Below are positions 40,819-62,669 of a stretch of 64,000 nt of DNA, piece by piece. Made by a program: the position numbers and the translations under genes. Each line of letters begins with the position of its first letter. Position 1 is the stretch's first letter. This DNA comes from Acidobacteriota bacterium. Its GTDB lineage: Bacteria; Acidobacteriota; CAIWXX01. The notes under the pieces were generated by a model that made no database searches, was not told where the DNA came from, and saw nothing but the letters and a program-made list of their open reading frames with translations. Location of the stretch: contig JBFMAF010000035.1 of assembly GCA_040755995.1 (NCBI GenBank), positions 32,001 to 96,000 of the forward strand, given 5' to 3'.

Positions 40819-41931
40819 TCACCCGATGTTGGCGATATCGCTGATGACGCCTGCGGCGACCTCCTCGATGTGTGCGACTGCTTCCGCCACGGCGGGCGTT
40901 CCCTTGAGCGCGTTGCCGACCAGTTCAAGCCGCGGCACGTTCGCGAAGAGCAGCTTGTGAATCGGCACCGCAGTATTGCGCCAGCCCCACCTGACCTCCG
41001 TACGCAAGAATCTGCCGAAAGCCTTGCACAACTTCACGTAGAGCCTCTGCGCTTCGCGCGGCAGCGCGTTCAGCGCGCTCCCGTCGAGTCGAGGGAGTCG
41101 TTGGAGGAACATCGCGATCGCCGGCTGCGGGTAGACCTCATCGAAGAAGCGCTCGATGGTTTGCGTGACGATACCGCGGAGCTCGCAGAGCTCGCCGTTG
41201 AGGCACAGGTAGAGCAGTTCGATTGCGTGCCGGCACCTCACGAGCTCCAGATGAGCCGCTGCCAGAAAGGCGAGCTGCTGGTCTTCGTGCCAGGCCGCCT
41301 GCAACACGTGGCGTCCGACATCGCAGAGGATCTGATCCACGCGATCCGCCAGCCCCTCTTTGTCACTCCGGGTCAACAGAGCAACGCGGTCGCGCAGCTG
41401 CGAGAGCCGCAGGTGGAAGGTCTCGTGACCGTGACGCATCAGCTTGACGAACCGCTCGTCATGCATCGGATACCCGGGGCTCAGGTAGAGATCCTCGACG
41501 ATCAGGCTGTACTCGAACCAGTAGTCGTGGAGCGTACGACAGATGTAGTACACAGGCATCTGTGTGTCGAGGCTGCGGACCTGGAAATGAACCTCATAGT
41601 ATCCCACCTCGCTGAGCATGGCTCGAAGGGCCAGAGGGTTGGCCAGACTCACATTGTAGGTTCCCCAGCGGACTTTGATTTGCGTCTCTTCCGTCAGATG
41701 AGCTGTGAGGCGCGCGATGTCGCCGAGTCGCCCGCCTTGGACCTCCAGCTTCCGTCTCAGAGCATCGTACAAGCGGAGACGGCAAAGAAGCGGCCGTAGG
41801 GCTTCGCAGATATCATCGGTCGGGAGCCTCCACCAGCTCCCGCCGTCGCCGCCCCTGCCGTGTTGCGTGGTGTGGGTCGCGGTGGCAGTCCCAGAGCTGT
41901 TGACGGTGTGATCCGGGCCCTGTGAGAACAT
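40819..41931 (-). CDS. Hypothetical protein, last gene of the AAA-AAA-vWA operon
   Basis: 370-aa ORF starting 17 bp after the vWA stop, SD AAGGA; no recognised motif. Confidence 0.75.
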   Translation of the reverse strand: MFSQGPDHTVNSSGTATATHTTQHGRGGDGGSWWRLPTDDICEALRPLLCRLRLYDALRRKLEVQGGRLGDIARLTAHLTEETQIKVRWGTYNVSLANPLALRAMLSEVGYYEVHFQVRSLDTQMPVYYICRTLHDYWFEYSLIVEDLYLSPGYPMHDERFVKLMRHGHETFHLRLSQLRDRVALLTRSDKEGLADRVDQILCDVGRHVLQAAWHEDQQLAFLAAAHLELVRCRHAIELLYLCLNGELCELRGIVTQTIERFFDEVYPQPAIAMFLQRLPRLDGSALNALPREAQRLYVKLCKAFGRFLRTEVRWGWRNTAVPIHKLLFANVPRLELVGNALKGTPAVAEAVAHIEEVAAGVISDIANIG

Positions 41932-41947
41932 GTGAAACCGTCCTTGC

Positions 41948-44149
41948 CTAGCGTTTCGAGAGAAGCCTGCGGCGTTCGGTCATGCAGGAGGCCACGTACA
42001 CGCCGACCTGCCTCGCCACCTCAGTGTACTCGGTGAGATTCTTTTCCGGCACCGTCATTACCTTGTTCACGAGGTTCTCAAATTCAGTCTCCACCTCGAC
42101 ACCCAACGCAACGAGCGTGACATGGAGCCTGTTGGTCCAGCGCCGATATGACTCTTCCAGAACGTCTCGCACCTCTTCGGCGCCGCTCTTTCCCGAATTG
42201 AAACTGCGATTCCACTCGCAATCCGAGATCAGGATCAGGTAGACCATCTTGCAGCGGGCTACTCGCCGCGCCTCCTCCAGCATGAACGCCAGAGAGAGTG
42301 CGTCTGACTGGACACCTGTCCCGGTGTAAGGCAGCGAGGCGACGGCGCGCACCGCCTCGGTCCGGCTTATCGCCGGCGTCTTTCGAGGATGGTGAATCCA
42401 CTGGATCAGTGGCCCGGACACGCCCTCGCGGATCTGGTCGCTGTGGTAGAGCCCCGCCAGGACCTGCACTTCGGTCCTGGCGGTCGACCTGAGCCAGGCC
42501 GCCGCGAGGATCTTCACCATTCTCATCTGCCGGGTGTCCAGAGATCCCGAGCCGTCGCACGCCAGCAGCAGCACAGGCCGCCCTCGCCGATCGACCTTCT
42601 CGTGTATTCGATATCGCTTGAACACAACGTTGGAGGCATCCACCATCGCGAGCCTGGCCGGGTCGAGCAGTCCGCTCGAGCAGAAGCGCTCGGTCTCCGG
42701 CGTCTGCTCGATGTTCGGATACAGCGCCCTCTGCATCGCGTCGGTGATGACCTGCGACTCCGCGATGAGCGTCTCCACCTCCTCAGCATCCTCTGACAGC
42801 TCCACAGGCCGGTCGAATATCTCGCCTCCAGCCGGCAGCCCTCCGCACATGAGGTTCACCTCGTGGCCCTCCGACGGGTTGCCCTCGATCGGTCCCGTGC
42901 TGAACGCCGTCTCTCGCAGCACATGCTCGACCAGATCCGATCGCATGTCTTCCCACTTGCTGCTCTGCCCGCCCGCCTGCTGCAGTGCTTTCATGAAGTC
43001 GCTCCAGGTCTTCCCAATCGGACTCTCCAGCTCGTCCTCATCGGGCAGGCCCAAGTACCGCTGGGCCTCCTGAATCTTGCCGAGCAGCGCCTGCACGAGA
43101 TGCAGGCCGGACTGTGCTGACTCAAACAGAGCCGGCGGCTGCGGCCCGTCCAGCGGAGGTATCGCGTCGCTGACCGGGGCCGCATCATAATCCGGCGAAA
43201 ACCGGAACTCACTGTCCGCAGGCCGCTGCCACCGCTGCCGACCGTACCTGGCCCCAAGTCGCCGCATCAGCGCCGAAAGGACTGCCTGATCCGGCGCGGG
43301 CCTCTCGCCCTCCCTCGCTGGCTTCTCCTCGGTGCGAGATTTCGGCAGCGGGAGGTGGCGCGACAGCGCGAGACACACCGCCCTGACCCAGTCCTTCCCC
43401 AGGTCCAGCAATCGGTGCGGACGCGTGCCCGCGAGCTGCTCAAAGAACGGACGGCACACCCGAACCACCGTCCCGGCCAGGGTGGCTGTGATGGGATGGA
43501 GGCTCTGGCGTTCCAGGTCGGGAAGCACATCACCATAGAGGATCACCGCGTTTATGATCTCGCGCACCGAACGAAACTTCATGTTCTGCTGCGAGGCGCT
43601 GAAGAGCCTGTACAGCTCGACCGAGGCCATGCTGGAGGACCGTGAGAGATCCTCGAGCAGGAGGCGTGTCTGCACCGCAGCGGCCACGATCTCGGCCATC
43701 TGCTTGTATATCTCAGGTTCCACGCGCACCCGATCGTGAACAGCGGGGTCTTTCAGGTAGTCCTGCATGTGGGTCAGCAGAATCTTCTCGGCTACGCGCT
43801 CCTGGAAGTCCAGGAACCCCGTCAGACCGACGGCTGCGTATGCGGCCAGCGATGGCGGATAGCTCGTGTAGCAGGGGCTCAGCTGTGGCTTCACCGCCGG
43901 CTGAAAATCGTCATCTGTTGCGACCCCCGCCAGCTGCGCCGCGGCGACTTGAACTCTCTTCACGGCTTGGTAGAACAGCCTCTGGGCCGCCATGCGGATG
44001 TAGTAGTCCACCTCCGGCTTGAAGGCATCGCCGATGGAAATCCCAGCCCAGTCTGTCTTGTGCTTCTTTCGCCGGTAAATGTAGGAGCAGCTCCCAGAGT
44101 AGTGGCCGCTGGACACCGTCTCCGGGTTCATCGGCTTTGCTGGGTTCAT
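41948..44149 (-). CDS. vWA (MIDAS) protein, CobT/NorD-like architecture
   Basis: SGLLDPARL, LLLACDGSGS (DxSxS), TGVQSD, LILISD; low-complexity central linker; SD AGGAG. Confidence 0.8.
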   Translation of the reverse strand: MNPAKPMNPETVSSGHYSGSCSYIYRRKKHKTDWAGISIGDAFKPEVDYYIRMAAQRLFYQAVKRVQVAAAQLAGVATDDDFQPAVKPQLSPCYTSYPPSLAAYAAVGLTGFLDFQERVAEKILLTHMQDYLKDPAVHDRVRVEPEIYKQMAEIVAAAVQTRLLLEDLSRSSSMASVELYRLFSASQQNMKFRSVREIINAVILYGDVLPDLERQSLHPITATLAGTVVRVCRPFFEQLAGTRPHRLLDLGKDWVRAVCLALSRHLPLPKSRTEEKPAREGERPAPDQAVLSALMRRLGARYGRQRWQRPADSEFRFSPDYDAAPVSDAIPPLDGPQPPALFESAQSGLHLVQALLGKIQEAQRYLGLPDEDELESPIGKTWSDFMKALQQAGGQSSKWEDMRSDLVEHVLRETAFSTGPIEGNPSEGHEVNLMCGGLPAGGEIFDRPVELSEDAEEVETLIAESQVITDAMQRALYPNIEQTPETERFCSSGLLDPARLAMVDASNVVFKRYRIHEKVDRRGRPVLLLACDGSGSLDTRQMRMVKILAAAWLRSTARTEVQVLAGLYHSDQIREGVSGPLIQWIHHPRKTPAISRTEAVRAVASLPYTGTGVQSDALSLAFMLEEARRVARCKMVYLILISDCEWNRSFNSGKSGAEEVRDVLEESYRRWTNRLHVTLVALGVEVETEFENLVNKVMTVPEKNLTEYTEVARQVGVYVASCMTERRRLLSKR

Positions 44150-44266
44150 GCCGTCTCTCCTGGCGGCTCAGACCAGCACCCTCCACACGGTAGAGAGTAG
44201 AGAGTGGCAGTGAGGCATTGCTCTAAGACTTGACTCAATCGCAGCATCTTCTTCTCCTCAAGCCCG

Positions 44267-45283
44267 CTAGAAGAGGCTTGCTTCCAGTGAGATCTCGGAG
44301 TCCTCGGCCACGGGGATCCCGAAGGTTTCGTTGAGCACGCCGGGGATAAGCTTGTGGTCCTCGACGCCTGCGTTTCCGAGCAGCGTGGCCATGGCAACCT
44401 GCTGCGGCGACATGTGAGGCATCCACAACGCCATGCGCATGAACGCCAGGTACCCGTAAATGGTCGGCGGGCAGAGCGACTGGAGGTTCCCTTCGGAGCG
44501 CTGCCGCCGCACGACCTGGCCGAGTTTGACGACCTTCATGATGAGGTCGTTCTCAGCCTGCCCGAGCGGTTCCCCGTCGAAGAGGAGGTGCCGGAGGACC
44601 TGCACCTCCTGATCAGCCGTGAGGTATTCCAGTGTCAGGTTGACAGAGAAACGCCGTTTGAGAGCATCGTCGAACGTGACCAGCGTGTGCGTGGAATCCT
44701 GCTCGGCCTGATAGTTGCTGTCAGCCACCCAGGCAATTCCCTGACCCGAGATGCGCCGGCCGTCAGGCAGGATAATGTCGTTCTTGGTCATGAGATTCAG
44801 CAAACCCCCTTGCACGCTCGAGGAATGCACCCGGCCCATCTCGCGCAGCCAGATCAACGGGTAGCACTCGCGCCTGCGGCCCGCAGCATCATCGATCGCC
44901 AGTACCAGCTTGCTGAGCTCGTCATAGGTCGTGCCCCCCTTGAGCGCACGGCGCTGGTAGAGTTCCCCCGGCGCTTCGTAGGTCGCCATCTCGATCGGGT
45001 AGAGCTTCAGGGGGAGCCCTGGCAGGCCGAGCGCCGCGCAAACGGACTGGAAGTTCTCGGGGACGAGATAGAGCGCCTCCAGCAGCGAGCTTTTCGCGCT
45101 TCCTGTGGGCCCGCTCAGGTGGATGAACTCGTGGCGAGCGATCGCGTACACGAGCGTCTCGACCAGCCACTTGATCAGGAACAGGCGATGACCTCCCGGG
45201 ACCGGCTGTAGTTCGATCAGATCCATCGGACCCGCTTTCCGACACTCCGCCTGATTCGTGACTCGAAAGATCTGGTTCGCCAT
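44267..45283 (-). CDS. MoxR/CobS-like AAA+ ATPase with variant Walker B
   Basis: GPTGSAKS, LIWLREMGR, VADSN, FDDALKRRF; SD GGAGG. Confidence 0.82.
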   Translation of the reverse strand: MANQIFRVTNQAECRKAGPMDLIELQPVPGGHRLFLIKWLVETLVYAIARHEFIHLSGPTGSAKSSLLEALYLVPENFQSVCAALGLPGLPLKLYPIEMATYEAPGELYQRRALKGGTTYDELSKLVLAIDDAAGRRRECYPLIWLREMGRVHSSSVQGGLLNLMTKNDIILPDGRRISGQGIAWVADSNYQAEQDSTHTLVTFDDALKRRFSVNLTLEYLTADQEVQVLRHLLFDGEPLGQAENDLIMKVVKLGQVVRRQRSEGNLQSLCPPTIYGYLAFMRMALWMPHMSPQQVAMATLLGNAGVEDHKLIPGVLNETFGIPVAEDSEISLEASLF

Positions 45284-45287
45284 GCCG

Positions 45288-47585
45288 TCACCCTCCTCCG
45301 TTGTGGTCCGTCAGGCCGCGGGCCTCACTGGCTGCGTCTCCTGATGGCGCACGTACTGTATCGATCGCCAGGACGCCGTCCCCGCAGCTGCGGGCGAATA
45401 GCGTCGCCCCCGAGATCGCGGCGCCGGATTGATGAAGCCGGAGCAGCGACTCGGCAGCGAGCGAGCGACCCCGCTCCAGGAGCGCCCTTGCACCAAACGA
45501 GGTCATGTTACTGTGGAGAGACTTCAGGAGGGCCGCGCCCAGGCCCTGCTCGAGAATCACGCGGCACCGGGCCAGATGGAGGCGTTCGGTGGCCGAGAGC
45601 AGCGCCGCCCGTATCGCACGCTCCAGAATCGCCGCCAGGGCGTCCCCGCTCAAAGGCTCGAACAGAATCGGCGTCCCCACGCGACTCAGGAAAGCGCTGG
45701 AGAGCATCCGCTTGATCTCGTTGTTGACTCTCCCCGCGACCGCCTCGGCGGGCACTACGTTCTCGAACCCGATCCCTTTGCGCACCGCCTCGTCCATTCC
45801 GTCCGGAAGGTTCATCGTGAAGGCGAAGATCAGGTTGGCACAGGAGAACATGGCACCGGCGGTGCTCTGCGCTTCGCCTGTCTCCAGCACCTGGAGGAAC
45901 AGATCAGCCAACCCGGCCCGTACGCGCTCGTTGGCGTGATCCAGGTCGCTCACTTCGATGAGCGCTCCGGTGTGGTGCTTCGCCGCTTGTTCGAGGCGAC
46001 CGCTCTGGTATGAGCCGACGATGCCCCGGCCGGAGCCCAGAAGCTGTGCGGCGGCGGAGTAGTAGTCCGGGATGCTCGCCGCGTCGACGTTGACATAGGG
46101 GATGCCGAGTCTCTGGGCGATCAGAACGGCGCTTTCCGACTTGCCCGTGCCTGGCGTGCCCTGCGCACAGTAGCGGATAGGCTGATGGAGCGGCCGCGTG
46201 AGGCACTCCATACGAAGCCGCGCGACAAGCTGCTCGATCGCGGCGTCCTGCGCCAGCAGATGTTCCTGGAGATGGGCGAGCAGACCTGGATCCGCCAGCG
46301 CCCGCACGAAGCACGCCTGTGTGGAGGGAGCGCGTTCCGAGCGCGGCCGACAACTCAATCCGGCGAACGTTTCCGAAAGACCGGCTACCGCGGAGGCGAA
46401 GGTCAAGGTGGGCACCATCAGGGCCGTCTTCTGGTGTGCTGCATTGACGCTTCGCGTGGCCACGATTGGCAGGAGCCTCTTCTGTTCAGGTGGAGCCATG
46501 CCCTCGATGCCTGCCAGCACCTCGCGAGCGACCTGGTCCTCCTGGCTCTTCGAGAGCCCGCCGGCGAGGCGCGCTGCGCTCTGCACCGCGAAGGGCGTCA
46601 GGACGTCCATCGTGGCGTCGGGGACTCGGCGCAGAATCGGGTTCAGGGGGTCGCTGGTTCCCCCTTGCCCGCCGTGGAAGACCGCCTGCAGCTGGTCGAA
46701 GCTGCCGCTGAAGATGGCGCAGGCGCCGAGCGAGGACAGTGTTGCCATCAGCGCCTTGATCTCGCTTCCCAGCTCGTATGGGTTCGACCCTAGGCTGAGG
46801 CAGCTGGCGGGAATGACCAGTTTGCCAGGAACCTTCTTCGAGACCTCCACAACGGCTCGACTGTTGATCGATGTCGAGATGACACGGCCGAGGGAGCTGC
46901 CGGAGTCGCGGGCGGCGCGAGCCAACACCGCCAGCCCGAAGCTCTCGACCACGGGGAACGACGCAGAGATCGCCAGCGACGCGCTGCCGGACAGCAAGTC
47001 CATCGTCTCTCGGGCCCATTCCACGAGATCGGAGCCGAGCGACCCCGCGTCGCCATGCCACGGATAGATGGGCTCCACGGCCTCCGAGAAATCCTTGTAC
47101 AGCTGCACGAGATCGGAATCGGTCCGGACAAGCGGCATCTCCGCCTGCAGCGTTCTGGCCAGCTTGTCCAGCGTTTTCAGCTCGGACATGAAAGCAGTCC
47201 CACGGGACAGGGACATCATGGCCGGCTGGATCTTGAGCTCCAGGCCGAGCGATGCGCGCTCAGTCTTGCGATCCCATGCAGGCGGAATCGGACGCGTCCT
47301 CTCGCCCAGGCCCGAGAGGCAGGCGAAAAACGGCATCACCGGCACCCGGATCTCATGCGGCAATCGGACCAGCTCGACCTTCAACGCAATCAGCAGCTCA
47401 TCTGTGAGCCGACCCGATACGCTGACGATACCGGGACCCTCATCGGCTCTCGTGCCCTGGAAGGCGCGTCCGTCTGCAGCGATGCTGATCTCCACACCGG
47501 TTCCATGACGCACGAAGTCGGCCACCTGGCGCAGCGCAGCCTCGGAGCCGGCCGGATCGAGTGACCTCGCCTCTCTAATTGTCAT
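45288..47585 (-). CDS. ClpA/B D2-like AAA+ ATPase with unknown N-terminal region
   Basis: LLAQDAAI, GTPGTGKSE, LLGSGRGIVG, IEVSDLDHA, FLQVLETG, FTMN, AFLSRV..ILFEPL. Confidence 0.82.
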   Translation of the reverse strand: MTIREARSLDPAGSEAALRQVADFVRHGTGVEISIAADGRAFQGTRADEGPGIVSVSGRLTDELLIALKVELVRLPHEIRVPVMPFFACLSGLGERTRPIPPAWDRKTERASLGLELKIQPAMMSLSRGTAFMSELKTLDKLARTLQAEMPLVRTDSDLVQLYKDFSEAVEPIYPWHGDAGSLGSDLVEWARETMDLLSGSASLAISASFPVVESFGLAVLARAARDSGSSLGRVISTSINSRAVVEVSKKVPGKLVIPASCLSLGSNPYELGSEIKALMATLSSLGACAIFSGSFDQLQAVFHGGQGGTSDPLNPILRRVPDATMDVLTPFAVQSAARLAGGLSKSQEDQVAREVLAGIEGMAPPEQKRLLPIVATRSVNAAHQKTALMVPTLTFASAVAGLSETFAGLSCRPRSERAPSTQACFVRALADPGLLAHLQEHLLAQDAAIEQLVARLRMECLTRPLHQPIRYCAQGTPGTGKSESAVLIAQRLGIPYVNVDAASIPDYYSAAAQLLGSGRGIVGSYQSGRLEQAAKHHTGALIEVSDLDHANERVRAGLADLFLQVLETGEAQSTAGAMFSCANLIFAFTMNLPDGMDEAVRKGIGFENVVPAEAVAGRVNNEIKRMLSSAFLSRVGTPILFEPLSGDALAAILERAIRAALLSATERLHLARCRVILEQGLGAALLKSLHSNMTSFGARALLERGRSLAAESLLRLHQSGAAISGATLFARSCGDGVLAIDTVRAPSGDAASEARGLTDHNGGG

Positions 47586-47624
47586 CTCTCGTTCTCCCGT
47601 GTCGCACGTCCCGCTGGAAACCAA

Positions 47625-47640
47625 TGCAGCTTGGGTGCCA
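47625..47640 (-). promoter_or_regulatory. sigma-54 (-24/-12) promoter of the AAA-AAA-vWA operon
   Basis: Minus strand TGGCACCCAAGCTGCA, GG/GC at consensus spacing, 40 bp upstream of ATG 47585. Confidence 0.7.
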
Positions 47641-47755
47641 GCCGTATGTTAGAGGAAATGCCCGATCTGGTTGAGTACTGCGTTGAGTTTCCCAAAGAGG
47701 GTTTGTTGAGATTATCTGAGTCTGGTACAACGGGGAAGAACTCAACGAACGAGGG

Positions 47756-48279
47756 GTGCCCAGGAGTACTCGCGCACTGAAGTTCACCATCACGGCGGAC
47801 ACCGTTGGAGTTTCTCGGGCCTAGCTGGAAACGGACTCGGTTCAGGCGTTCGCCAGGGTGAAGAGGCAGGAAGGCCCCGTGGCTTACATCGTCCGGAACG
47901 AGGATCTGGCGGTGTTGTCTTCTTTCAAGGACCTGGTCGTCGATCGCGGCAGGAAGCACGAAGCCAGCTCTCTCAAAGCTGCTGCTCGGGTGCTCGAAGA
48001 TCCCACTGGCCACAGGCGGCTTCTCTGCACCGGGGCAGCTGAAGCGCAGCATTCGAACCGTGCTGCGCAATGCGATCAAGACAAACGATCGCAACGCGTA
48101 CTTCGTCGGGGTGGAGCAGGTGATCTTCGAGGAGCTGTGGAGAGAGGCCAGACCCGAGCCGGCCGGAAGAACCGCCGTGGCCCCGCAGGGCTGGCGAGAA
48201 CCCCGGCGGCCGAGGCGGCCTCGACGCCAGAGGACATCACGTTGGCCCGCACTCTCCTGGAACTTCACCATACACCGAC
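47756..48279 (+). pseudogene. Disrupted N-terminal region of the sigma-54 activator
   Basis: Protein-like segments spread over three frames plus an in-frame TAG at 47822; decay or sequencing error. Confidence 0.45.
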
Positions 48280-49446
48280 GTGCCCCCAGAACTGGAGAAG
48301 CGATTCGTCGGCCGGTCGATCGAGGCCCAGCTGGTTCGGCAGCTCATTGTGCGAGCGGCACGGTCGGATGATCCGGTGCTCATCGTCGGGGATACCGGCA
48401 CGGGCAAGGAGGTCGTGGCGCGCGGCATTCATGAGTTTAGCAACCGCCCCGGGTTCACACCTGTCAACTGCGGCGCGATTCCCAGCGAGCTGCTTGAGCC
48501 GCTACTCTTCGGGCACCAGAAGGTGTTTACCGGGGCCGATCGAGAGCGGTTGGGTCTGTGGAAGGATGCGGGTGAAGGGACGCTGTTTCTGGACGAGGTC
48601 GCCGACCTGCGTTTGGAGCATCAGATCAAGATCCTGCGGGCGATCGAGGAGAAGAAGGTCAGACAGTTGGGGAAGAGCCAGGAGGTCGACGTCCCGGCGC
48701 GGGTGATTGTCGCCAGCAACCGTGATCTTTTCTCCCTGGTGCAGGCCGGATCGTTCCGCGAAGATCTCTACTATCGCCTCCGCACCTTCATGATCCGTAC
48801 GCCGTCGCTGCGCGACTGCCCCGAGGACATCCCGCTGATCGCGGATTCGCTTTGGAAGCGAATTGCGGGAGACGATCAGGTGTCACTCCCCGATCCGATT
48901 CTTGCGGAGCTGAGCTCCTATGGCTGGCCCGGGAACGTGAGGGAGCTCAAGGCGCTGCTTTCCAATCTGCGTGCCCTGTTCGGGAATCATCATCTGCGAA
49001 TCGAGCATGTGAGAGCCATGATGGGGCTGGAGGGCACCGGTCGGGCACAGGTGGGCACGGCGCCCGAGGACCAGATCGGCCTCCACCGCGTCCAGCGCCT
49101 CCGTCACCTGAAGCGGGTGGACGAGGTGGTACGCGCGAGCAAGGTGGCGCTGCGGCCTCTGGTCGAGCAGAAGCGACAGGATCCTGAGAGCATTGCATCG
49201 GTTCGAACCGCCTTGCATCGCCGCCTGGACGAGCTCGAGGTCCCTTGCCTGCATCCACTGCTCTTCAGCAGCGAGGTCGCATTTTCGATCGTGCATCGTC
49301 TCAAAGGCAAGCTGACCTACTACCACAGCCTTCTCCAGACAGGCGCCGTGAACGCCCTTCGCTACTGGAGGCGGGAGGTGTCCGAGGAGTACAAGCTGGC
49401 AATATCCACAGTCTTCCAGGAAGTCAACCGCCTGACCAAGGGGTGA
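48280..49446 (+). CDS. sigma-54 enhancer-binding protein AAA+ core without a Fis-type HTH
   Basis: GDTGTGKE, NCGAI, FGHQKVFTGA (degenerate GAFTGA), TLFLDEV, FREDLYYRL, WPGNVREL; about 130-aa helical C-terminus. Confidence 0.85.
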   Translation: MPPELEKRFVGRSIEAQLVRQLIVRAARSDDPVLIVGDTGTGKEVVARGIHEFSNRPGFTPVNCGAIPSELLEPLLFGHQKVFTGADRERLGLWKDAGEGTLFLDEVADLRLEHQIKILRAIEEKKVRQLGKSQEVDVPARVIVASNRDLFSLVQAGSFREDLYYRLRTFMIRTPSLRDCPEDIPLIADSLWKRIAGDDQVSLPDPILAELSSYGWPGNVRELKALLSNLRALFGNHHLRIEHVRAMMGLEGTGRAQVGTAPEDQIGLHRVQRLRHLKRVDEVVRASKVALRPLVEQKRQDPESIASVRTALHRRLDELEVPCLHPLLFSSEVAFSIVHRLKGKLTYYHSLLQTGAVNALRYWRREVSEEYKLAISTVFQEVNRLTKG

Positions 49447-49646: not shown

Positions 49647-50189
49647 CTACCGGTGTTTGTTGAGCTGCTCCTGCAATAGTGCCAGGTCCTGGGGATTCGC
49701 TCCGTTCTGGAGCAGGAATTGAACCACATCGTTCTTCGCCGTCACGGCCGCGGCCATGACTGCGGTCAGCTGCTGGGGGGTGTGCGCGGTGACATCGGCG
49801 CCCTTCGAAAGGAGCGATCTCACAATCTCGAGATTCCCCGCCTGCGCCCAGAACATCAGGACGGTCCAGCCATCGCGTTTCCGAGCATTGACGTCCGCAT
49901 TTGCTGCGAGAAGCAGTCTCGCCACGTTCGAGTTGTTCTTGCGTGCCGCAATCATCAGAGCGCTGACGCCGTCCTTGTCCTGCTCATTCACATCGGCCCT
50001 TCTGCCGATCAACTCCGCAACCAGTTGTTCGGCATCAAGGGCCACGGCGGCCATCAATGCGGTGCCATGATCGCGATCGCGGTGATTGACATCCCCGCCG
50101 GCGTTGATGAACTGGCGGATGTCCCTCTCATTCATTCGTGCCCAGTCGCGCGGTTCGAGATCCTTGCCTTTGGAACTGAACAACCCCAT
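49647..50189 (-). CDS. Ankyrin repeat protein
   Basis: 4-5 Ank repeats (GTALMAA, GVSALMIA, GWTVLMF); SD AAGGAGG; starts MGLFSSK. Confidence 0.9.
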   Translation of the reverse strand: MGLFSSKGKDLEPRDWARMNERDIRQFINAGGDVNHRDRDHGTALMAAVALDAEQLVAELIGRRADVNEQDKDGVSALMIAARKNNSNVARLLLAANADVNARKRDGWTVLMFWAQAGNLEIVRSLLSKGADVTAHTPQQLTAVMAAAVTAKNDVVQFLLQNGANPQDLALLQEQLNKHR

Positions 50190-50346
50190 ACACTCCCTCC
50201 TTTGAGAAGAAGAATCCTGTGTGCCGGATCGGCGTAGGAGAATAACCAAGTCCGCCAGTGGAAAGCAGGCGAAGCCCACACCGTCTGTCATTTGAGGGGC
50301 CACGCGGAAGCGCTCGCAATTCCCCAGATGTCGTCATTGGGCCGCC

Positions 50347-52014
50347 CTATGCTGCGCGATCCGTCTTGGCTCCGGAGCGCCGAGTGAAGACTCGCACCAA
50401 CTGACCCGACAGGCTCAGAAGAAATATGCCAAGGACGATCACGGCGCCCCAACGGACCATCGAGGCCAGCTGGGACCACGGGATCTGCGCTGACCAATGG
50501 AACCATGTCTGATAGCAGAGAAATGCCAGGATGGCGGTGAAACCCGAGAAGAACCCGAGACATCCCCATTCCACATGACCACAATTCCTGCAGACGGCGC
50601 CAGGGTCTGTCATGATGCTCTGGCAACGTGGGCAGGCACGGTCTTTCGACTCTGATCGGGGTTCCGGACCGTGGCGCTTCTCCAGCGCACGGCTTGCAGC
50701 GTCTGCACGGCGCGCGTCGGTTGTGGACACGCCCATTGAGCCGGCGGCCTTCTTCATCAGGGAGTCCATGACGCGCAACTGCTCGTCCGCGCGCGGATGA
50801 CCAAGATCCTTGGCGCGTTGGAAACACCTTCGAGCCTCGTCATGGCGCTCGAAGCTGTCCATCATCAGGTTGAGCACCACCCCTTTGTTGTACAGGCTCT
50901 TGCTGTCCGCCGGTTGAATCTGGAGCGCCTTGTCGTAACACTGCAGAGCTTCCGCAAGTCGGCCGGTCACGCGCAGCTCCTCGCCTTTGTTGTTCCAGGT
51001 TTGCCACAATGAACCATCGAGCCTGAGTGCCCGGTCGTAGGCTTCGATTGCCCCCTCGGTCCGATGTAGCGCGGACCTGGCGAGTCCGATGTTGTGCCAC
51101 AACTTCGCGTCACTGGAATCGAGCTTGGCCGCGGTTTCGAAGCAGGTGAGGGCCTGCTCCAACTCGCCGTTCGCGCTGTGTTCCATGCCCTTGGAGAGCA
51201 GCGCGGCCCTTCCCATGTCGGCCGTTCGACTGCCGGTTTCGGCGGAGAGCATCTCTGCCACCCCCGTATGGCCGCGTGCCCGGGCGTACATGAGTGGGGT
51301 CGAACCGTCCCGGTTGCTCACTCCGGGATCGGCGCCTCGCGCCACCAACTGCGCGGCCACATCCAGGCAACCGTTCTGAGCTGCGAAGTGAAGAGCCGTC
51401 ATTCCATTGACAGGGTTGGCCTCGTTCACGTCGGCCCCCGCGTTGAGGAGGAGTTCCACGATCTGGGAGAAGCCTCGGTCCGCGGCCAGGCCTAGTGGTG
51501 TCGAACCCCACCTGTTGGGCGTGGCAAGGTCGGCGTTCTCTGCGAGAAGAAGCCGTACAGATTCCGTATGGCCCTCCTCCACAGCATACAGAATGGCCGA
51601 CGAGCCGTCGATGTTCCGGGCGTCGATGTCCACGCCCTGGCCCAGCAGCGCACGAACGATACCGGTTTGGTTCTTCCGCGCGGCCATCATGAGCGCCGTC
51701 CACCCGTTGGAATCCCCGACGTCCGCAAGGGCTCCCGCGCTGAGAAGCATCTTGACAACGTCCTCGTGGCCAGTGTCCGCTGCCAACATGAGCGCCGTGG
51801 TGCCTGTGAGCGAACGCGCGCCGGCCTGGGCGCCTGCACTCAGCAAGAGAGCCACGGTCTCCTTCTTCCCGTGCCAGGCCGCGATCATGAGCGGCGTAAA
51901 GCCCTTCGGGTCTCGACCATTGATGTCGGCGCCTTGGGCCAGCAGGCGATTGACCGCCTCAGGTCCCTGGCTCAGGATCGCCAGTACGACGTCAGCATTC
52001 GACGGGGAATTCAT
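50347..52014 (-). CDS. Ankyrin + TPR + zinc-ribbon + C-terminal TM protein
   Basis: About 7 Ank repeats, about 4 TPRs (LWHNIG, TWNNKG, SLYNKG), CPRC..CRNC, two TM helices. Confidence 0.9.
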   Translation of the reverse strand: MNSPSNADVVLAILSQGPEAVNRLLAQGADINGRDPKGFTPLMIAAWHGKKETVALLLSAGAQAGARSLTGTTALMLAADTGHEDVVKMLLSAGALADVGDSNGWTALMMAARKNQTGIVRALLGQGVDIDARNIDGSSAILYAVEEGHTESVRLLLAENADLATPNRWGSTPLGLAADRGFSQIVELLLNAGADVNEANPVNGMTALHFAAQNGCLDVAAQLVARGADPGVSNRDGSTPLMYARARGHTGVAEMLSAETGSRTADMGRAALLSKGMEHSANGELEQALTCFETAAKLDSSDAKLWHNIGLARSALHRTEGAIEAYDRALRLDGSLWQTWNNKGEELRVTGRLAEALQCYDKALQIQPADSKSLYNKGVVLNLMMDSFERHDEARRCFQRAKDLGHPRADEQLRVMDSLMKKAAGSMGVSTTDARRADAASRALEKRHGPEPRSESKDRACPRCQSIMTDPGAVCRNCGHVEWGCLGFFSGFTAILAFLCYQTWFHWSAQIPWSQLASMVRWGAVIVLGIFLLSLSGQLVRVFTRRSGAKTDRAA

Positions 52015-52015
52015 C

Positions 52016-55000
52016 TCAGGTCCTCCTCGCTCCGAGCTCAATCAAAATATCAGCGACCTGACGGCGATCGGGATGCTTTTCCAGTGCCATGGCCAACGCA
52101 GTGTCACCGTCATCGTCGCACGCGTTGACGTCTGCGCCTCTCTTGACGAGGTCCATCATCAGCTTGAAATACCCGTGCCAGACCGCTCCCATCAGGGGAG
52201 TGCGCCCGAACCTGTCCCGCAGGTTGACCTCGTTCACGGCGTAGAGGATGTCACGTAATTCACGCTCGTTGCACTGGGTCCAATCCAGTTCGTTCGGGCG
52301 AGCCAGATCCAATCCCGGTCCTGGTCTCGAAGGGTGATACGCAATGCCCTGGACAACGCCGGCTGCGTGATCAAGCAGCGGCTTCAGCCCGTAGTCCTCT
52401 CCAATACCAATGGCTTGATTGGCTAGCTGGAGCGCCTGGTTGGTCTGGTTGGCCCTCACGGCGAGCGTGGCCTCACAGAGTAGCGCGTGAACCTTCTCCC
52501 CCGGCTCGTTCAGGGCGCCGGCAAGCCGCGCATGCTCCTCAAAGCGTCGATGCGCTTCGTGAAGGTAGCCCAGCGCCGCAAGAAGCACCGCCTGGTTGCG
52601 CAAGCATCCGAGAAGATCCCGGTCCAGACCCCGGCCGCGGCAGAGGGGCTCCTCCTCGCGCAGCAACCCCAAGGCCTCCTGATTGCGGTTCAGCGAGGCC
52701 AGAGTCGCGGCTCGCCCTCCCAGCGCCGCGACCAACCCAATAGCGTTGCCTGTCTGTCTCGAATGGCCCTCCGCTCGCTCGTAGGATGCCAGTGCCCCTT
52801 CGTAGTCGCCTCTCGCCGCTTGTGCCTGTGCGACTCCGCAGAGCGCCACAGCCTGCATCAACTCCGAGCCTGGCCTGTTGTGCCACCGCTCGACGTTGTG
52901 CTCCCATAGCTGAAACGCCGCTTCCGCGTCACCGCGAGCCCGGAAAAAGCAGGCGAGGTTCCAGACGAGCTCGTCCTCGTGGTCTCCGGGCCGCGCCACG
53001 ACGGGAGAATACGCGGCCACACAGGTCCCGGCGCCGGTTGCCTCGATCTGAGTCCAGTATCTCCACACGTCGGACTTCCGCGTCTGGAATGCAGCAGCGA
53101 AGAACCCGAGGTCGGACAGCAGGGCGAACAGGGCGGGCCACTGGCATGATTCTGCCAGGAGCCATGGCAGCTCAGAACACTTCCGATAGTTGGGCCTCTT
53201 GGCAGCCGTCCCATCGACCACATGATGCGGCTGCGATCGGAAGTACTCGACGAGGTGTGCATGCCGGCCGGCAAGCTCGCCCTGCCGTTCCAGGCGATCA
53301 ACGATCCCCTTGCGAATGGCCGCGTGATAGAAATTCAGTACGCTCGTGGCATCCGCCCGACGCTCGGCGAGGTGGGGCTCTACGTCGGCATGCAATCGCG
53401 ACCATACCACTACAGGAAGCCGAGTTACGAGGGGCGAGCGGGGGGAGCGGCGGCGAAAATCTCCCAGCACCTCAGGATCCGCTGAGAGGACATCCAGCAG
53501 TTCTTCTTCCGTCAATCCGTGGCGGCTCGCCGCCAGCAGACCCAGTGCCCGAAGTGTCAACACCCGCCCATGTTGTCGCTCGTCCTCGAGTCGGGTCAGC
53601 AGTTGTTCCACCAGTCCAGGCACGTCCGAACCGAGCGCGCCAAGGGGATCGTAGGACTTCCAGCGCCGGGCTTCCCCGAAGGCGAGACGCAGATACAGCG
53701 GGAGGCCGGCGACGGCCGATTTCCCCAGTACCTCGCTGCGTTGATCGGGCCGCAGGCTTCGGCCGGCCGCCAGGAGCCACTCGTCGAGCAGCGCCTCTCT
53801 CTCGACCACGTCAAGAGCGTCGACTCTGGCCAGGTTATCGGCGCCTGCAATGCGACTCGCCGTCCGGTAGCATTCGCCTTCAGGGCCGTCGGACTCGATT
53901 CCGGACACGATCAGCTTCACGTTGGGTGGCAGCTCGTGTGGCAACCATGTGAGGTCGCGTGCCCCGTCCGTGGGACTGAGTTGATCGAGTGCATCGAGCA
54001 GCAGGATGAGGGGTCGTTCGGCTGTCGCTAATCTCAAGCGGCTGGAGAACTCCTGGGCCAATTCACGAAAACCGCTGGGCACCGGCCATTCGTTTCCGTA
54101 CTTCTCTCCCAATTCGCTGCATAGCGACTCCAGCAGGGAGGCGCCGTCCGAGGATGCGGGTGTCGCACCGATGAAACGCGCAATAATCGTCGCGGTTGCT
54201 GCCTGATGCGCGACCGTCTCCAGCACCCTCCCCATGAGCGCCGTCTTGCCCGAACCGGAGACTCCGTGGATCAAGAAGGGACAGTTCCGGTCGCCTCCGA
54301 TGTAAGTGTCGATCTTCTCAAGCTGTGCCATCCGGCCCTTGAAGTGCTCGGCGCGCTGCAAACCGAGGTCCCAGTGAGCTCGTATCTCGCGGTCCAGCTC
54401 CCTGCCCCTCTCGAACTCATCTATCTCCCGCTCTATGATCGAGATGAGATCACGCTCCACGCGCGCACAGAGAGTCGAGATCTCTTCATTTGAGATCACA
54501 GGCCAGTTGGTCGTGTACTCATACACATGATCATGTGCGAGCAGACCTGGTTGGCTATCATCCCCCTTCAGGGAGTGCTTGAGAGCACGGAGGCACTCCT
54601 CTGCCTCGAGATCGCGTGCCCCGTTGATCAGGTCGCGGTAGTCCCTGGCGGAGTGGTCTGTGGGCAGACCTGTGATCGTCCGGAAGTAACCAAACACCTG
54701 CCGCTGAGCCCCTGGCTCCTCGAGAGCGCTGCGAATCTCTTGATGACTTGCCGAGTCCTGGTATTTGTCGAGACGTCGATCGCCAGTGTCGAATAGCTGC
54801 TTCGCCGCCGCCAGTAACAGCGAGTGCAGACTTGGTTCCACCGCCTTCCACTGGTCTTCGGCATCATTGTTCGCCTCTCTCGGCAAGAGGTCGTATCTGG
54901 CCGGGACCGCGTTGTCGTCGCGTCTGTACCAGCTGTGGACGACTACACCGGCCGGAACCGCGCTGTCGTCGCGTACATCGCGCCCGGTCGTCTTTTCGCG

Positions 55001-55381
55001 ATGTCTATACCAGCTGGGCAGGAGATTATGGTGTGGGATGCGCCGCAAGAGCGCCTCGAATTCGATCGCCTCGATCTGCGCCGGCAGCGGCCTCCAACCA
55101 TATCGTTCACCAAGCAGCACAATGAAATTCGGACGAGGGGAAAGTCTCTGACAACGCCTCAGCTCCTGGAGGCAGATATTCATCGTCTGCTGGTCGAGCG
55201 CGGCCTCCTCGCTCACGCCCCAGCGAAGGTCGACCGCGTGGAACCGAGCGCCGCGGTCACGGCAATAGGTGCGTAGGTGGGTGAATGTGTTCTCCTGCAG
55301 TGCATTTCGTTCTGCGACCATGTCGCTGAACGTGGAGCTCACAAAGACCCGAAAAATCAGATCCCGTCGCGTCATTGTCAT
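52016..55381 (-). CDS. DUF4062-NACHT/STAND-TPR-ankyrin NLR-like protein
   Basis: RVFVSSTFSDM..VDLRWG..LLGERYGW; GVSGSGKT; LLLDALDQL; GLPLYL; TPR-like helices; C-terminal Ank repeats. Confidence 0.88.
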   Translation of the reverse strand: MTMTRRDLIFRVFVSSTFSDMVAERNALQENTFTHLRTYCRDRGARFHAVDLRWGVSEEAALDQQTMNICLQELRRCQRLSPRPNFIVLLGERYGWRPLPAQIEAIEFEALLRRIPHHNLLPSWYRHREKTTGRDVRDDSAVPAGVVVHSWYRRDDNAVPARYDLLPREANNDAEDQWKAVEPSLHSLLLAAAKQLFDTGDRRLDKYQDSASHQEIRSALEEPGAQRQVFGYFRTITGLPTDHSARDYRDLINGARDLEAEECLRALKHSLKGDDSQPGLLAHDHVYEYTTNWPVISNEEISTLCARVERDLISIIEREIDEFERGRELDREIRAHWDLGLQRAEHFKGRMAQLEKIDTYIGGDRNCPFLIHGVSGSGKTALMGRVLETVAHQAATATIIARFIGATPASSDGASLLESLCSELGEKYGNEWPVPSGFRELAQEFSSRLRLATAERPLILLLDALDQLSPTDGARDLTWLPHELPPNVKLIVSGIESDGPEGECYRTASRIAGADNLARVDALDVVEREALLDEWLLAAGRSLRPDQRSEVLGKSAVAGLPLYLRLAFGEARRWKSYDPLGALGSDVPGLVEQLLTRLEDERQHGRVLTLRALGLLAASRHGLTEEELLDVLSADPEVLGDFRRRSPRSPLVTRLPVVVWSRLHADVEPHLAERRADATSVLNFYHAAIRKGIVDRLERQGELAGRHAHLVEYFRSQPHHVVDGTAAKRPNYRKCSELPWLLAESCQWPALFALLSDLGFFAAAFQTRKSDVWRYWTQIEATGAGTCVAAYSPVVARPGDHEDELVWNLACFFRARGDAEAAFQLWEHNVERWHNRPGSELMQAVALCGVAQAQAARGDYEGALASYERAEGHSRQTGNAIGLVAALGGRAATLASLNRNQEALGLLREEEPLCRGRGLDRDLLGCLRNQAVLLAALGYLHEAHRRFEEHARLAGALNEPGEKVHALLCEATLAVRANQTNQALQLANQAIGIGEDYGLKPLLDHAAGVVQGIAYHPSRPGPGLDLARPNELDWTQCNERELRDILYAVNEVNLRDRFGRTPLMGAVWHGYFKLMMDLVKRGADVNACDDDGDTALAMALEKHPDRRQVADILIELGARRT

Positions 55382-55611
55382 GGATCGTGTCCTGGCGCAG
55401 CGGGGCGAATAGGTTGTTGCTCCCAACCTGAGATCACAGGGAGCGCCCGATCACCACTTGGCCGGTCTGGAAGGCAACGATATGGCGTGCATCCGGAGCG
55501 CTCCGGTTCGCGGCCGGAGGCGATGCCCACTTGCATTGCAGCCATAATGATCGTCGAGTCATGTTGTGTCAAGTCAGGTAAGACCGCGACCGGGCGCTTC
55601 GGGTCTGTCAT
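55378..55611 (-). CDS. Possible small protein or remnant upstream of the NLR-like gene
   Basis: SD GAGGGA, 77 aa, ATGA overlap with the NACHT start; no motif. Confidence 0.3.
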   Translation of the reverse strand: MTDPKRPVAVLPDLTQHDSTIIMAAMQVGIASGREPERSGCTPYRCLPDRPSGDRALPVISGWEQQPIRPAAPGHDP

Positions 55612-55711
55612 GTATCCCTCGCCGTGCGTCGTGCGTCGAACGCGGGATCGCCTTGATCGGATGCGTGGCGCCCCGGCCGGGTTCCGGCGGAGCGCCACGC
55701 TCGCTCACCTC

Positions 55712-58081
55712 CTACTTCACGACGAACGGTACAGTGTTGCTCTTCGTTCCGTCGACCACCGCATACACGCTGACCGTTCCTTTCTTGAGCTTCTTCGGGA
55801 TGCTCACCTTCAGCCGGCTCGGGGACGCCGAGTTCACGGTCCCCTTCGACTTGCCGAAGTACACGATGTTCTTGGTCTTGTCCGGACTGAAGCCGCTGCC
55901 GTAGATCGTGGCGGCACTCCCCGGCTTACTGGTTCTGGACTTGATCCGCGTGATGACCGGCCCACCAGATGCGCCGACCGTGATGGTCGCCGTCGTGCTG
56001 TTTGCCGCCCCGCATGGGTTGGCCACCTGCACCCAGAAGCTGCTGGTTGAAGTCAAGGGCGGGGTGACAAAGACATTGGAATTCGTCCCGACAGCATCGC
56101 TGGTGTCGCCCGTGGTGCCTTGATACCACTGGTAGAACAACGGTGCCGTGCCATTGGCCACCACGCTGAGGGTCACGCTTTGTCCGCTGGTCACGGTGGT
56201 GCTCTGTGGCTGCAGTGCGATCGAGGGCGGGACGCAGCCGGAGCTCACGGTGACGGTCGCCGTGAAACTGTTCACGGAGCCGCACGCGTTGCTCACGCGC
56301 ACCCAGTAGCTCGCGTTGGCGGAAAGCGGCGGTGTAGTGTGCGTGCTCGAGTTCGCCCCGACCGGGAAGCTCGTATCACCGCTCGCACCCTGGTACCACT
56401 GGTAGTTCAACGGGGTAGTCCCCGTGGCCGCCACGGCGAGAGCCGCCGATTGTCCTATGCCAACAGTGGTGTTCTGCGGTTGAACCGTTATCGAGGGTGG
56501 CACGCACCCAGAGGTCACCGTGATGGTGGCCGTGTTGCTGTTGGCAGACCCGCACGCATTGCTCACACGCACCCAGTAATTGGTGGTTGCGGTCAGTGGC
56601 GGCGTGACATACGTGCTGGAATTCGTGCCTACGGGTGTGCTCGTGTCGCCGGTGAGCCCACGGTACCACTGGTAGTTGAGCGGTGCCGTGCCGTCGGCCG
56701 ACACGCTCAGCGTGGCGGACTGGCCGTTGGAGATGGTCTGGCTGGATGGATGCGATGTGATCGACGCCGGATTGCACGCCGGCGCCTTCTTCAGGATCGT
56801 GCCGCCGGTGCCCGATGCATAGCCGAGATCCGGGGTGATCATGCAGATTCCCCAAAGGTTGGTGGTAACGCCGCTCGCCTCAGGCGTCCACGTGGCCCCA
56901 CCGTCAGTCGTCGACAGGATGAGCCCGCCGTCTCCGACCGCCCAGCCCTGGTACGCGTTGAGGAAATGCACGTTGTTGAGATCGGTCGATGTTCCGCTGG
57001 TCTGAGGCACCCAGGTGGCTCCGCCATCGACCGTATGGAGTATGGTTCCGCCGTCGCCCACGATCCAGCCCGTCATGAGGTCGAGCATCCTGATCGATTT
57101 CAGCCACTGCGTCGTCCCGCTGGACTGAGCGATGATCGTCGGCCAGCTGGGATACTGCGCTGAGCCGTTCGAAATGCGATGGATCGTGCCGCTGGAGCCG
57201 ACGGTCCACCCGTTGTCCTGATCGACGAAGTAGATGTCATAGGGTGTGGGTCCTGGGCAAGTCCTCATCGCCAAGGTGGACAGCCCGCCGCCAAGAGGCA
57301 TCGTATATCGGCCGAGGTTGCGGCAACCTGTGCCGCTCTCATACCTGGCTCCCCATGCCACTGTGGAGGAGACGGGGAAGAGGCGGTATGACGCGGGCGG
57401 GGATGAACCTCCGTCGGTTGTGACCGTCCAGCTGGCCCCGCGGTTGGTCGTGCGGATCCACGAGTACGGTGCGCCTGCCCATCCCGTGTTCTGGTCGAGG
57501 AAGCGCACGGAGTAGTAGCCCTGCGAGGACGAGACCCCGGGCACGACGACCGGCGGCCAGCTCGCGCCTCCGTTGCTGGTGTGCAACAGGACCGCAGAAC
57601 TCCCCGCTGCCCACCCTTCGTCAGGGCTCGTGAAGTGGACATCCCACACGGTCTGCGACGTACCGCTGTTGAGAGGCTGCCACACTGAAGCCTGAGACTC
57701 CGATGTGATCAGGACTGGACCGGAGCTCACACAGGTCGTGGCCCCCGCGCGGACCGTCAGCGACCAGGTGTACAGCCCGTCGGCAGGATATGCGTGAACC
57801 GGGTTTCGGTCCGTCGACATAGTGCCGTCGCCGAAATCCCAGAAGTACTCGATCCCGTCCTTGTCGTAGCTTTCGTCTACCGCGACCTTGAATACCACGG
57901 CTCGCTCGCGTCGAGCATCAGTCTGAACCTTGGCCGACTGTGCGGTGAGCAGACCGCACTCGCTGTTCCTGGCCGCAAGCTCGTCTTTGGCCACGGCGGC
58001 CGGCGCCCCCGCCGACCCCAACGAACCGAATGAGCACATGAAGAGTACCAAGAGAACTGGGAACCATTTGTGGTTGTTCAT
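55712..58081 (-). CDS. Secreted surface protein: PKD + YCF48-like beta-propeller + 3 Ig-like repeats + basic IPT/TIG domain
   Basis: Signal peptide, YFWDFGDG, repeated GWxVGxGGxILxTxDGGxTW, three PSI..QP..LNYQWY..YWVRVSNACG units; SD AAGGAG. Confidence 0.88.
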   Translation of the reverse strand: MNNHKWFPVLLVLFMCSFGSLGSAGAPAAVAKDELAARNSECGLLTAQSAKVQTDARRERAVVFKVAVDESYDKDGIEYFWDFGDGTMSTDRNPVHAYPADGLYTWSLTVRAGATTCVSSGPVLITSESQASVWQPLNSGTSQTVWDVHFTSPDEGWAAGSSAVLLHTSNGGASWPPVVVPGVSSSQGYYSVRFLDQNTGWAGAPYSWIRTTNRGASWTVTTDGGSSPPASYRLFPVSSTVAWGARYESGTGCRNLGRYTMPLGGGLSTLAMRTCPGPTPYDIYFVDQDNGWTVGSSGTIHRISNGSAQYPSWPTIIAQSSGTTQWLKSIRMLDLMTGWIVGDGGTILHTVDGGATWVPQTSGTSTDLNNVHFLNAYQGWAVGDGGLILSTTDGGATWTPEASGVTTNLWGICMITPDLGYASGTGGTILKKAPACNPASITSHPSSQTISNGQSATLSVSADGTAPLNYQWYRGLTGDTSTPVGTNSSTYVTPPLTATTNYWVRVSNACGSANSNTATITVTSGCVPPSITVQPQNTTVGIGQSAALAVAATGTTPLNYQWYQGASGDTSFPVGANSSTHTTPPLSANASYWVRVSNACGSVNSFTATVTVSSGCVPPSIALQPQSTTVTSGQSVTLSVVANGTAPLFYQWYQGTTGDTSDAVGTNSNVFVTPPLTSTSSFWVQVANPCGAANSTTATITVGASGGPVITRIKSRTSKPGSAATIYGSGFSPDKTKNIVYFGKSKGTVNSASPSRLKVSIPKKLKKGTVSVYAVVDGTKSNTVPFVVK

Positions 58082-58111
58082 TTCGTTACTCCTTTCGCTA
58101 CGGCCGGAGCG

Positions 58112-58127
58112 TGCAAGCGCCGTGCCA
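58112..58127 (-). promoter_or_regulatory. sigma-54 promoter of the surface-protein gene
   Basis: Minus strand TGGCACGGCGCTTGCA, a perfect TGGCACG-N4-TTGCW match 31 bp upstream of the ATG. Confidence 0.85.
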
Positions 58128-58492
58128 ATAGAGCGTGGCCTCTCGGGCCAGCCGAACCGCTTGATTTCGCTCTTCTGCGATGACGTGGGCGGGTCGAGTC
58201 AGAGCTAACTCAACCTCGTCGTGACTTGAGATGGACTATAACTCAACTACTCTCATCGCAACGCGGGATGACTTCCGGTCCGCAGAAGACCGAGGCCGGA
58301 GCGTGCTCTAGTAGGGGCGAACTCGACCTGACGTCCATCCTGAGAGTCATGAGCGCATCCCGTTTCGATGGCGATCATCATTGATGCGCGTACCGAACGC
58401 TTGTATCATCTCGCAAATAATGAGGGCGATTCAGGGCGGCACTCGAGTCTGGCCTACCGAACCAACTGGTGGAAGCGAAGGGGATTGGGGGA

Positions 58493-61984: not shown

Positions 61985-61990
61985 GAATCA

Positions 61991-62609: not shown

Positions 62610-62669
62610 GTGGCGCGCCTCTACTCCAACGAGAACTTCCCGCTGCCTGCTGTTGAGGAGCTGCGGCGC
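62610..62669 (+). pseudogene. DUF5615-like PIN toxin, first 20 codons only
   Basis: GTG directly after the DUF433 stop: ARLYSNENFPLPAVEELRR, then similarity ends at the WD40 gene's 3' end. Confidence 0.7.

Follow-up and report, generated by a model that had tools for sequence, protein, structure and literature searches.

What is an operon that joins two AAA+ ATPases to a von Willebrand factor type A (vWA) protein and a protein of unfamiliar sequence, and has this combination been described before? The question is raised by a 64,000 nt stretch of an Acidobacteriota genome (the stretch is termed the window, and its genome G000), in which four co-oriented open reading frames (ORFs) on the minus strand encode a Clp-like ATPase, a MoxR-like ATPase, a vWA protein and a 370-amino-acid (aa) protein. 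The shared orientation and the intergenic gaps of 4, 117 and 16 bp reported in the initial annotation of this DNA are borne out by the ORF positions, and all four genes are intact, with no damage of the type seen in a neighbouring activator gene (see below). That annotation did not recognize the combination, and our literature search, whose coverage leaves out most subscription journals, found only papers on ternary systems and no description of this set. The operon is a conserved, previously undescribed module. Our best reading of it, put forward tentatively, is that it adds a new subtype, marked by its Clp component, to the MoxR-vWA ternary conflict systems that have been predicted.

Homologous loci were collected from species genomes (32) and metagenomes (51), giving 83 loci, each given a number prefixed by L. 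Partners of the 370-aa gene were counted only over loci with a long enough flank. On this basis the vWA gene is kept in 71/73 loci, the MoxR-like gene in 53/54 and the Clp-like gene in 47/48, and the misses trace to two loci in which just a fragment of this gene is present. The order Clp-MoxR-vWA-unknown is constant except at L034. An absence of synteny in other genomes would have spoken against the system as first proposed; the module is instead conserved across many phyla, with titled hosts that include Acidobacteriota, Thermodesulfobacteriota, Nitrospirota, Bacteroidota, Lentisphaerota and Anaerolineales. It is also rare and patchy, occurring in 6/301 genomes and 3/185 genera of the window's phylum. 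Among 8000 candidates scored, 186 relatives of the 370-aa protein were found, and this protein accounts for 262 clusters at 50% identity. Plasmid and phage records gave no match to it, and no longer or fused form turned up, which is weak evidence.

The first gene (45288-47585, minus strand) encodes a ClpA/ClpC-like ATPase of 765 aa, with a novel N-domain, a degenerate first AAA+ domain (D1) and a second AAA+ domain (D2) carrying an IGF-type loop. The gene itself was called correctly at the outset, but its start is the ATG at 47585 rather than the TTG at 47624, which abuts the promoter; the corresponding 778-aa form is absent from the public collection, whereas the 765-aa form is present. The best solved relative is ClpA (E 1e-16), followed by ClpC, and D2 matches Pfam AAA_2 in 22/22 members. 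All 22 aligned members carry an [ILVMF]G[FY] loop after sensor 1 that aligns to the IGL of ClpA, as do 15 of 18 further members (the other 3 were not parsed). As a control, the genome's own ClpC-like protein has VGF at this position and its ClpB-like protein a gap. The best matches and this ClpP-docking-type loop identify the protein as ClpA/ClpC-like, and the earlier label of a ClpB-D2-like ATPase does not hold. Loops of the IGF type dock on ClpP and open it (excerpts of PMC9035409). By homology, the Clp-like protein would dock on ClpP in the same manner; ClpP is encoded elsewhere in the window genome, and the operon contains neither clpP nor clpS.

Beyond the D2 fold, the sensor motifs and the loop at the ClpA position, the protein departs from ClpA/ClpC in several respects. 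There are no Clp_N repeats and D1 appears to be dead, with an invariant Tyr270 that we infer to lie near the D1 pore-loop position. Walker A, sensor 1, the Arg finger and sensor 2 are kept in D2, whereas Walker B reads E-h-[SCA]-D in 22/22 members (SD, CD or AD for DE; hEhSD in the window copy). The pore loop is GIV in 21/22 (GIVG for GYVG in the window copy), and GYVQ is retained only in the distant L079 and L081.

The second gene (44267-45283, minus strand) encodes a MoxR-clade AAA+ ATPase of 338 aa whose best match is CobS (E 7e-8). Its Walker A follows GxxGxAKS, and its Walker B reads WLRE in the window copy, without the usual Asp. Indeed, the Walker B Asp is found in 0/35 MoxR-like members, being replaced by Arg (30), Lys (2), Met (2) or Cys (1), whereas sensor 1, an Arg pair, the Lys of Walker A and the Glu of Walker B are all invariant. 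In 11/54 loci (L009, L011, L013, L016, L022, L027, L031, L032, L041, L054 and L055) the gene is split at one linker (residues ~235-245) into a core gene and a lid gene of ~100 aa. The split occurs in two frames, and the lid is preceded by a Shine-Dalgarno-like stretch and an ATG. Six +1 splits form one clade in a quick vWA tree (Shimodaira-Hasegawa-like approximate likelihood ratio support 100), and splits with an ATGA overlap lie apart from it; from these sequences, the split appears to have arisen at least twice independently. Programmed frameshifting was considered and rejected, because the break lies in two different frames and the lid has its own Shine-Dalgarno-like stretch and ATG.

The third gene (41948-44149, minus strand) encodes a NorD/CobT-type protein of 733 aa, which consists of an all-helical N-terminal domain (model residues 31-270), a linker and a C-terminal vWA domain at which the chain ends. 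Its model matches NorD (Z 17.9) and the MIDAS (metal ion-dependent adhesion site) domain of Rea1 (Z 17.5). The MIDAS residues D532, S534, S536 and D643 are intact, and they are invariant in 49/49 vWA proteins. The ATPase and vWA protein thus resemble CobS-CobT, NorQ-NorD and Rea1-MIDAS in their best matches, intact MIDAS and Arg finger. They differ from these systems in the replaced Walker B Asp, the natural core/lid split and the coupling to a Clp ring, and no CobN, NorBC or Rubisco client is encoded nearby. In addition, the VMAP, iSTAND, beta-propeller and TERNS3 systems place variable effectors on or beside the vWA protein via vWA-L, whereas the vWA protein here has no Pfam domain at all in 49/49 members. 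A comparison of the module components revealed no convincing shared adaptor domain.

The fourth gene (40819-41931, minus strand) encodes the 370-aa protein. Its structure model is confident (predicted local distance difference test score 91) and is two-lobed, with a probable PolE (DUF6421)/dipeptidyl peptidase III (DPP III, M49) fold and a degenerate metal site. Foldseek ranked PolE first (E 1.5e-3, probability 1.00), as did VIA-align against 48,161 chains (Z 7.5, root mean square deviation (rmsd) 6.8, 250 residues). Bacterial DPP III (Z 6.0, 254 residues) is the next of the whole-length matches, which span 243-258 of the 370 residues at a borderline Z; the other VIA-align rows are restricted to about 60-115 residues, almost exclusively from the helical end of the protein. 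The PolE family is structurally akin to DPP III and carries the motif H[ED]xxH-x(21-23)-E (excerpts of PMC12614342). The same spacing is found between H215 and E238, which are 22 residues apart in 119/119 close and 114/122 wide relatives. Here the site reads Q-A-A-W-H215-x22-E238, so that the places of the first His and of the Glu/Asp hold mostly Gln and Ala, and an alternative register, HEDQR, has no second His; a complete H[ED]xxH or HExxGH is thus missing in both. Identity to PolE and DPP III is 9-14%, none of the 122 relatives scanned has a convincing Pfam match, and unlike PolE the gene is not in an amino-acid-modifying cluster. Searches of the PDB with the family profile returned nothing, a viral fold library gave nothing under E 0.1, and a DUF6421 gene was found neither in G000 nor in 301 sampled genomes. 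The top structural row of the atlas, TENT5C, reaches a TM score of only 0.40, under the bar. A nucleotidyltransferase fold was also considered, but Foldseek and VIA-align lend it no support.

Judging from this model, the 370-aa protein is likely a pseudo-peptidase adaptor or sensor, that is, a clamshell without catalysis that would bind a peptide or a charged ligand. The initial annotation had cast it as a client or effector of the machine. A toxic effector is the less fitting part of that proposal, since the predicted structure is closer to that of a peptide-binding clamshell that has been disabled, and we propose a role as adaptor or sensor in its place. An atypical metal site using D217 is the alternative. 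Were it correct, the CobS-like ATPase and vWA protein might insert or exchange the metal of a non-haem Fe or Zn enzyme (H215, D217, E238), Clp might clear failed copies, and the island in which the operon lies would reflect hitch-hiking. This metallo-enzyme maturation account draws on the nearest relatives of the pair, CobS and NorQ/NorD, on the constancy of the core, and on PolE, which is an Fe/pterin oxidase (excerpts of PMC12614342). H215, D217, Q218 and E238 are highly conserved together with many Arg residues, seven of them at >90%. We nevertheless regard the account as unlikely: the H[ED]xxH motif is incomplete in both registers, conservation of H215 drops to 88% across the wider family, and no metabolic or cofactor gene recurs in the module flanks, while signalling and NOD-like receptor (NLR) genes do recur. 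A genuine peptidase M49 (DPP III) gene stands directly after the activator gene at one locus (L008:709-2355).

Among the ternary conflict systems, which are described as predictions (excerpts of PMC7159879; Kaur et al., 2020), the closest is the simple FtsH-type system in that paper. As there described, this system shares with ours a MoxR ATPase, a divergent vWA protein whose N-domain is large and helical, a stand-alone uncharacterized gene and a patchy spread. Its third protein has two AAA+ domains, the first of them inactive, which the Clp-like protein may parallel in its D1 (homology to a Clp D1 at E 0.08). The FtsH-type system has a NEFF1 or radical SAM effector gene adjacent; radical SAM genes are present in only two of the flanks here (L025 and L057). 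In contrast, the second AAA+ domain here is of the ClpA-D2 type, with a ClpP loop and a non-canonical Walker B, rather than an active FtsH-type domain, which places the module outside the FtsH ternary system proper. Furthermore, the core here includes no radical SAM or Ubl genes, and a dedicated activator without a helix-turn-helix (HTH) and a sigma-54 promoter are not mentioned for the FtsH-type system in the excerpts. Other third components of ternary systems have been described, none of them Clp-like in the parts of those papers covered (PMC8195603, PMC12839542).

Control by sigma-54 was part of the initial proposal. A -24/-12 site with one mismatch (TGGCAC-N5-CTGCA, 47625-47640, minus strand) lies 40-55 nt upstream of the Clp-like ATG, and an RpoN box is present in the genome. 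Four such sites occur in the window against a shuffle mean of 1.67, and 14/100 shuffles reach 4, so the lone site is not above chance. Across homologous loci, however, sites with at most two mismatches precede the Clp-like gene in 17/42 loci, against 1.2% per shuffled window, although 6 of the 17 are from one lineage. No significant terminator or sigma-70 site was found for the operon. A perfect sigma-54 consensus is also present in the window at 58112-58127 (minus strand), 30 nt upstream of a PKD/BNR/Ig-domain gene (55712-58081).

Divergent from the operon lies what was first taken to be an intact enhancer-binding protein gene of 388 aa. It is instead the remnant (47762-49446, plus strand) of a gene of ~560 codons, as is evident from an intact 561-aa, 79%-identical paralogue on contig C28 of the same genome (L005:10648-12333). 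In this assembly the start codon is lost at 47762, a stop lies at 47822, the frame is shifted by deletions at three places (47968, 48187 and 48267), and only codons ~175-561 (48280-49446) are still open, with a 3-nt deletion at 48520 that leaves the GAFTGA loop one residue short. Assembly error may account for these lesions. The two copies in G000 have decayed in opposite ways, with an operon lacking a working activator in the window and an activator lacking the operon on C28, where the intact gene stands beside only the last 68 codons of a 370-aa gene. At L086:10001-10537 and L087:1700-2236 the operon is absent and there are lone matches to the 370-aa protein, covering its residues 197-366; the 3' end survives there as in the C28 remnant.

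The activators form a distinct family. A sigma-54 activator AAA+ core is present in 20/20 aligned members and an HTH family in 0/20, an architecture shared with the HTH-less Group 5 bacterial enhancer-binding proteins FlgR and CtcC (excerpts of PMC7175178). Unlike FlgR and CtcC as described there, they carry a novel N-domain in place of a receiver and a helical C-domain of ~135 extra aa. Among G000 ORFs and the neighbour genes of the loci, these N- and C-domains match only the two G000 activator copies; a SIR2-like identity for the N-domain was dropped, as the atlas matches (0.78-0.81) fall under the bar. GA[FY]T[GDN]A is kept in 12/20 members (RVFTGA in the C28 paralogue), and the other 8 lack GAFTGA yet keep the ATPase motifs and gene position. 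By a hand count over lineages, sigma-54 sites accompany 7/12 intact loops and 1/8 decayed loops, which is suggestive only. The activator gene is found in 28/38 loci, a count that takes in L067, where the match is to AAA alone, and L025, where the copy is relocated; none of 4 draft genomes whose locus is without an activator had a full-length one elsewhere. Since the window activator is broken, activation here would have to come in trans; the C28 paralogue is a possible but uncertain source, and the genome holds about 40 other activator matches. With sites in 17/42 loci, activators in 28/38 and a broken window copy, sigma-54 control is accessory to the module, and the proposal is not supported in its first form.

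The altered motors and activators also bear on another explanation, in which both rings would bind ATP with hardly any hydrolysis. The complex, to which the activator-like ATPase might contribute a third ring, would then be a nucleotide-gated scaffold or decoy that sequesters ClpP or some other machine of the host. The missing Walker B Asp in 35/35 MoxR-like proteins, the SD/CD/AD in 22/22 Clp-like D2 domains and the 8/20 activators that lost GAFTGA but kept ATPase motifs and place are all consistent with it. Invariant Walker A Lys, sensor 1, Arg fingers and MoxR catalytic Glu are expected of working motors, and we judge this explanation very unlikely.

Does the genomic setting favour a conflict role, as was first suggested from an NLR/TIR island? 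The operon does lie at the edge of such an island: two same-family genomes lack the island at this site and keep a vanZ-mazG-spy-like block (window 36.7-40.6 kb) without the module alongside, which indicates that the operon starts at the edge of an insertion. To survey neighbours more widely, 379 genes were called in the flanks, of which 271 were kept after removal of 10 near-duplicate loci and short ORFs, and 267 were scanned; statistics refer to the 47 loci that remained after dereplication and had 3 kb or more of flank. RyR and/or RelA/SpoT genes stand beside the module in 9/47 loci (6 with an RyR match) and STAND/TIR-type genes in 14/47 (12 without two labelled on NPHP3-type TPR or WD40 matches alone), so that 19/47 (17 on a stricter count) have some immune- or nucleotide-signalling neighbour. 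RyR was seen in 6/47 loci against 0.31 expected and TIR_2 in 9/47 against 0.54, where expected counts are densities in five host genomes each, chosen for having such neighbours. Furthermore, G000 has 5 RyR matches, and none is more than about 18 kb from its two module copies. In L015, L020 and L051 the activator is followed by co-oriented NUDIX and/or RelA/SpoT-like genes, and RxK, DxxGxR, GYxxxH and EIQxRT-type motifs, which we take to be synthetase motifs, look intact in 8/8 RelA/SpoT-like proteins. The island argument thus gains from immune and signalling neighbours above chance, and loses from the 28 to 30 of 47 loci that have no such neighbour in the flank.

The same survey bears on a general stress role, namely an accessory, sigma-54-inducible disaggregation or proteolysis unit that travels on islands and is not aimed at invaders. 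A constant core and a ClpP loop would suit such a unit, as would the sigma-54 sites close to consensus at some loci, the Hsp70/GrpE or Hsp90-like genes beside L015 and L021 and the lack of immune neighbours at most loci. An apparently dead D1 and an odd Walker B and pore loop suit a general unfoldase poorly, and the strong excess of RyR/RelA and TIR/NLR neighbours also argues against this role, which we consider doubtful.

We return to the ternary-type conflict system, and propose, at somewhat less than an even chance, that the module is a constant four-protein machine by which host ClpP is redirected under attack or stress. Homology suggests that the CobS-like ring, together with the MIDAS site of the vWA protein, takes hold of an acidic client residue and pulls on it, and that the ClpA-like ring docks through its IGF loops on ClpP encoded elsewhere. 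More speculatively, the DPP III-like clamshell, its catalysis lost, would bind a peptide or small ligand as sensor or adaptor, and the MoxR-vWA pair might load or release it. The Clp ring could then deliver targets to ClpP or dysregulate it, with dormancy, death or removal of invader proteins as the outcome. In a subset of hosts, the HTH-less activator would turn the operon on at the sigma-54 promoter, possibly in response to an alarmone-type nucleotide that a linked RelA/SpoT-like-RyR protein would synthesize and a NUDIX would remove; in the window genome it would need to act in trans. A more specific version, which we regard as quite unlikely, is an immune module that turns ClpP on the infected cell. 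Its hydrolysis-poor ClpA-like ring would serve as a gate opener resembling acyldepsipeptides (ADEP) or as a ClpX/ClpC competitor, licensed by a pseudo-DPP III sensor that the MoxR-vWA motor resets and switched on by an activator that reads the RelA/SpoT-RyR alarmone-type signal.

Several observations weigh against the redirected-ClpP machine. The PolE matches (Z 7.2-7.5, rmsd 6.6-7.2) are in the tool's range for a possible common arrangement, below that for a clear match, the motif was mapped onto PolE by spacing rather than residue-level superposition, and comparing the 370-aa family profile with one M49 neighbour gave nothing, leaving no sequence-level link to M49. The N-terminal half of the Clp-like protein has no Walker A/B and aligns only weakly to a Clp D1 (E 0.08). 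Non-canonical Walker B motifs in both motors and a D2 mostly without a pore Tyr may mean that processive unfolding is weak. The core is constant, mostly at 40-70% identity across phyla, and has no variable effector domain, unlike described ternary conflict systems. Finally, sigma-54 sites are absent from 25/42 loci, immune-type neighbours are missing from a majority of flanks, and PADLOC returned only generic AAA hits on the window.

The small, constant four-gene version could be cloned whole, which would permit direct tests of ClpP docking, MIDAS dependence and ligand binding by the pseudo-peptidase. It also presents natural oddities of AAA+ proteins: two motors whose Walker B lacks the Asp or the DE pair, a ring ATPase whose core and lid have become separate genes at least twice, and activators in which the ATPase motifs outlast the sigma-54 loop.

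Other gene sets were observed beside the module. A recurring set of NUDIX with RelA/SpoT-like-(SLOG)-RyR, TrkA-RyR and AAA-RyR genes occurs at L008:16511-20978, L016:12753-15924, L024:11266-17187, L015:1-2578, L020:2-2337 and L051:2-2215. A literature search on this set found no paper, and the genes may make up a separate nucleotide-signalling system. On C28 (162307-177200; L005:10308-18554, L094:1785-13213) the decayed module copy lies beside TIR-NACHT-WD40 and 908-aa RyR protein genes and inositol monophosphatase-like, TrkA-RyR and RelA/SpoT-RyR genes. The island beside the window operon (49647-64000, and L093:622-5859) contains ankyrin, ankyrin-TPR, two DUF4062-NACHT-TPR and WD40 NLR-type genes, as well as a small RyR gene that stands alone. 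Phosphofructokinase-domain genes stand beside the module at L023:11631-13898, L025:2-973 and L060:7805-8947, one of them with a long N-terminal extension.

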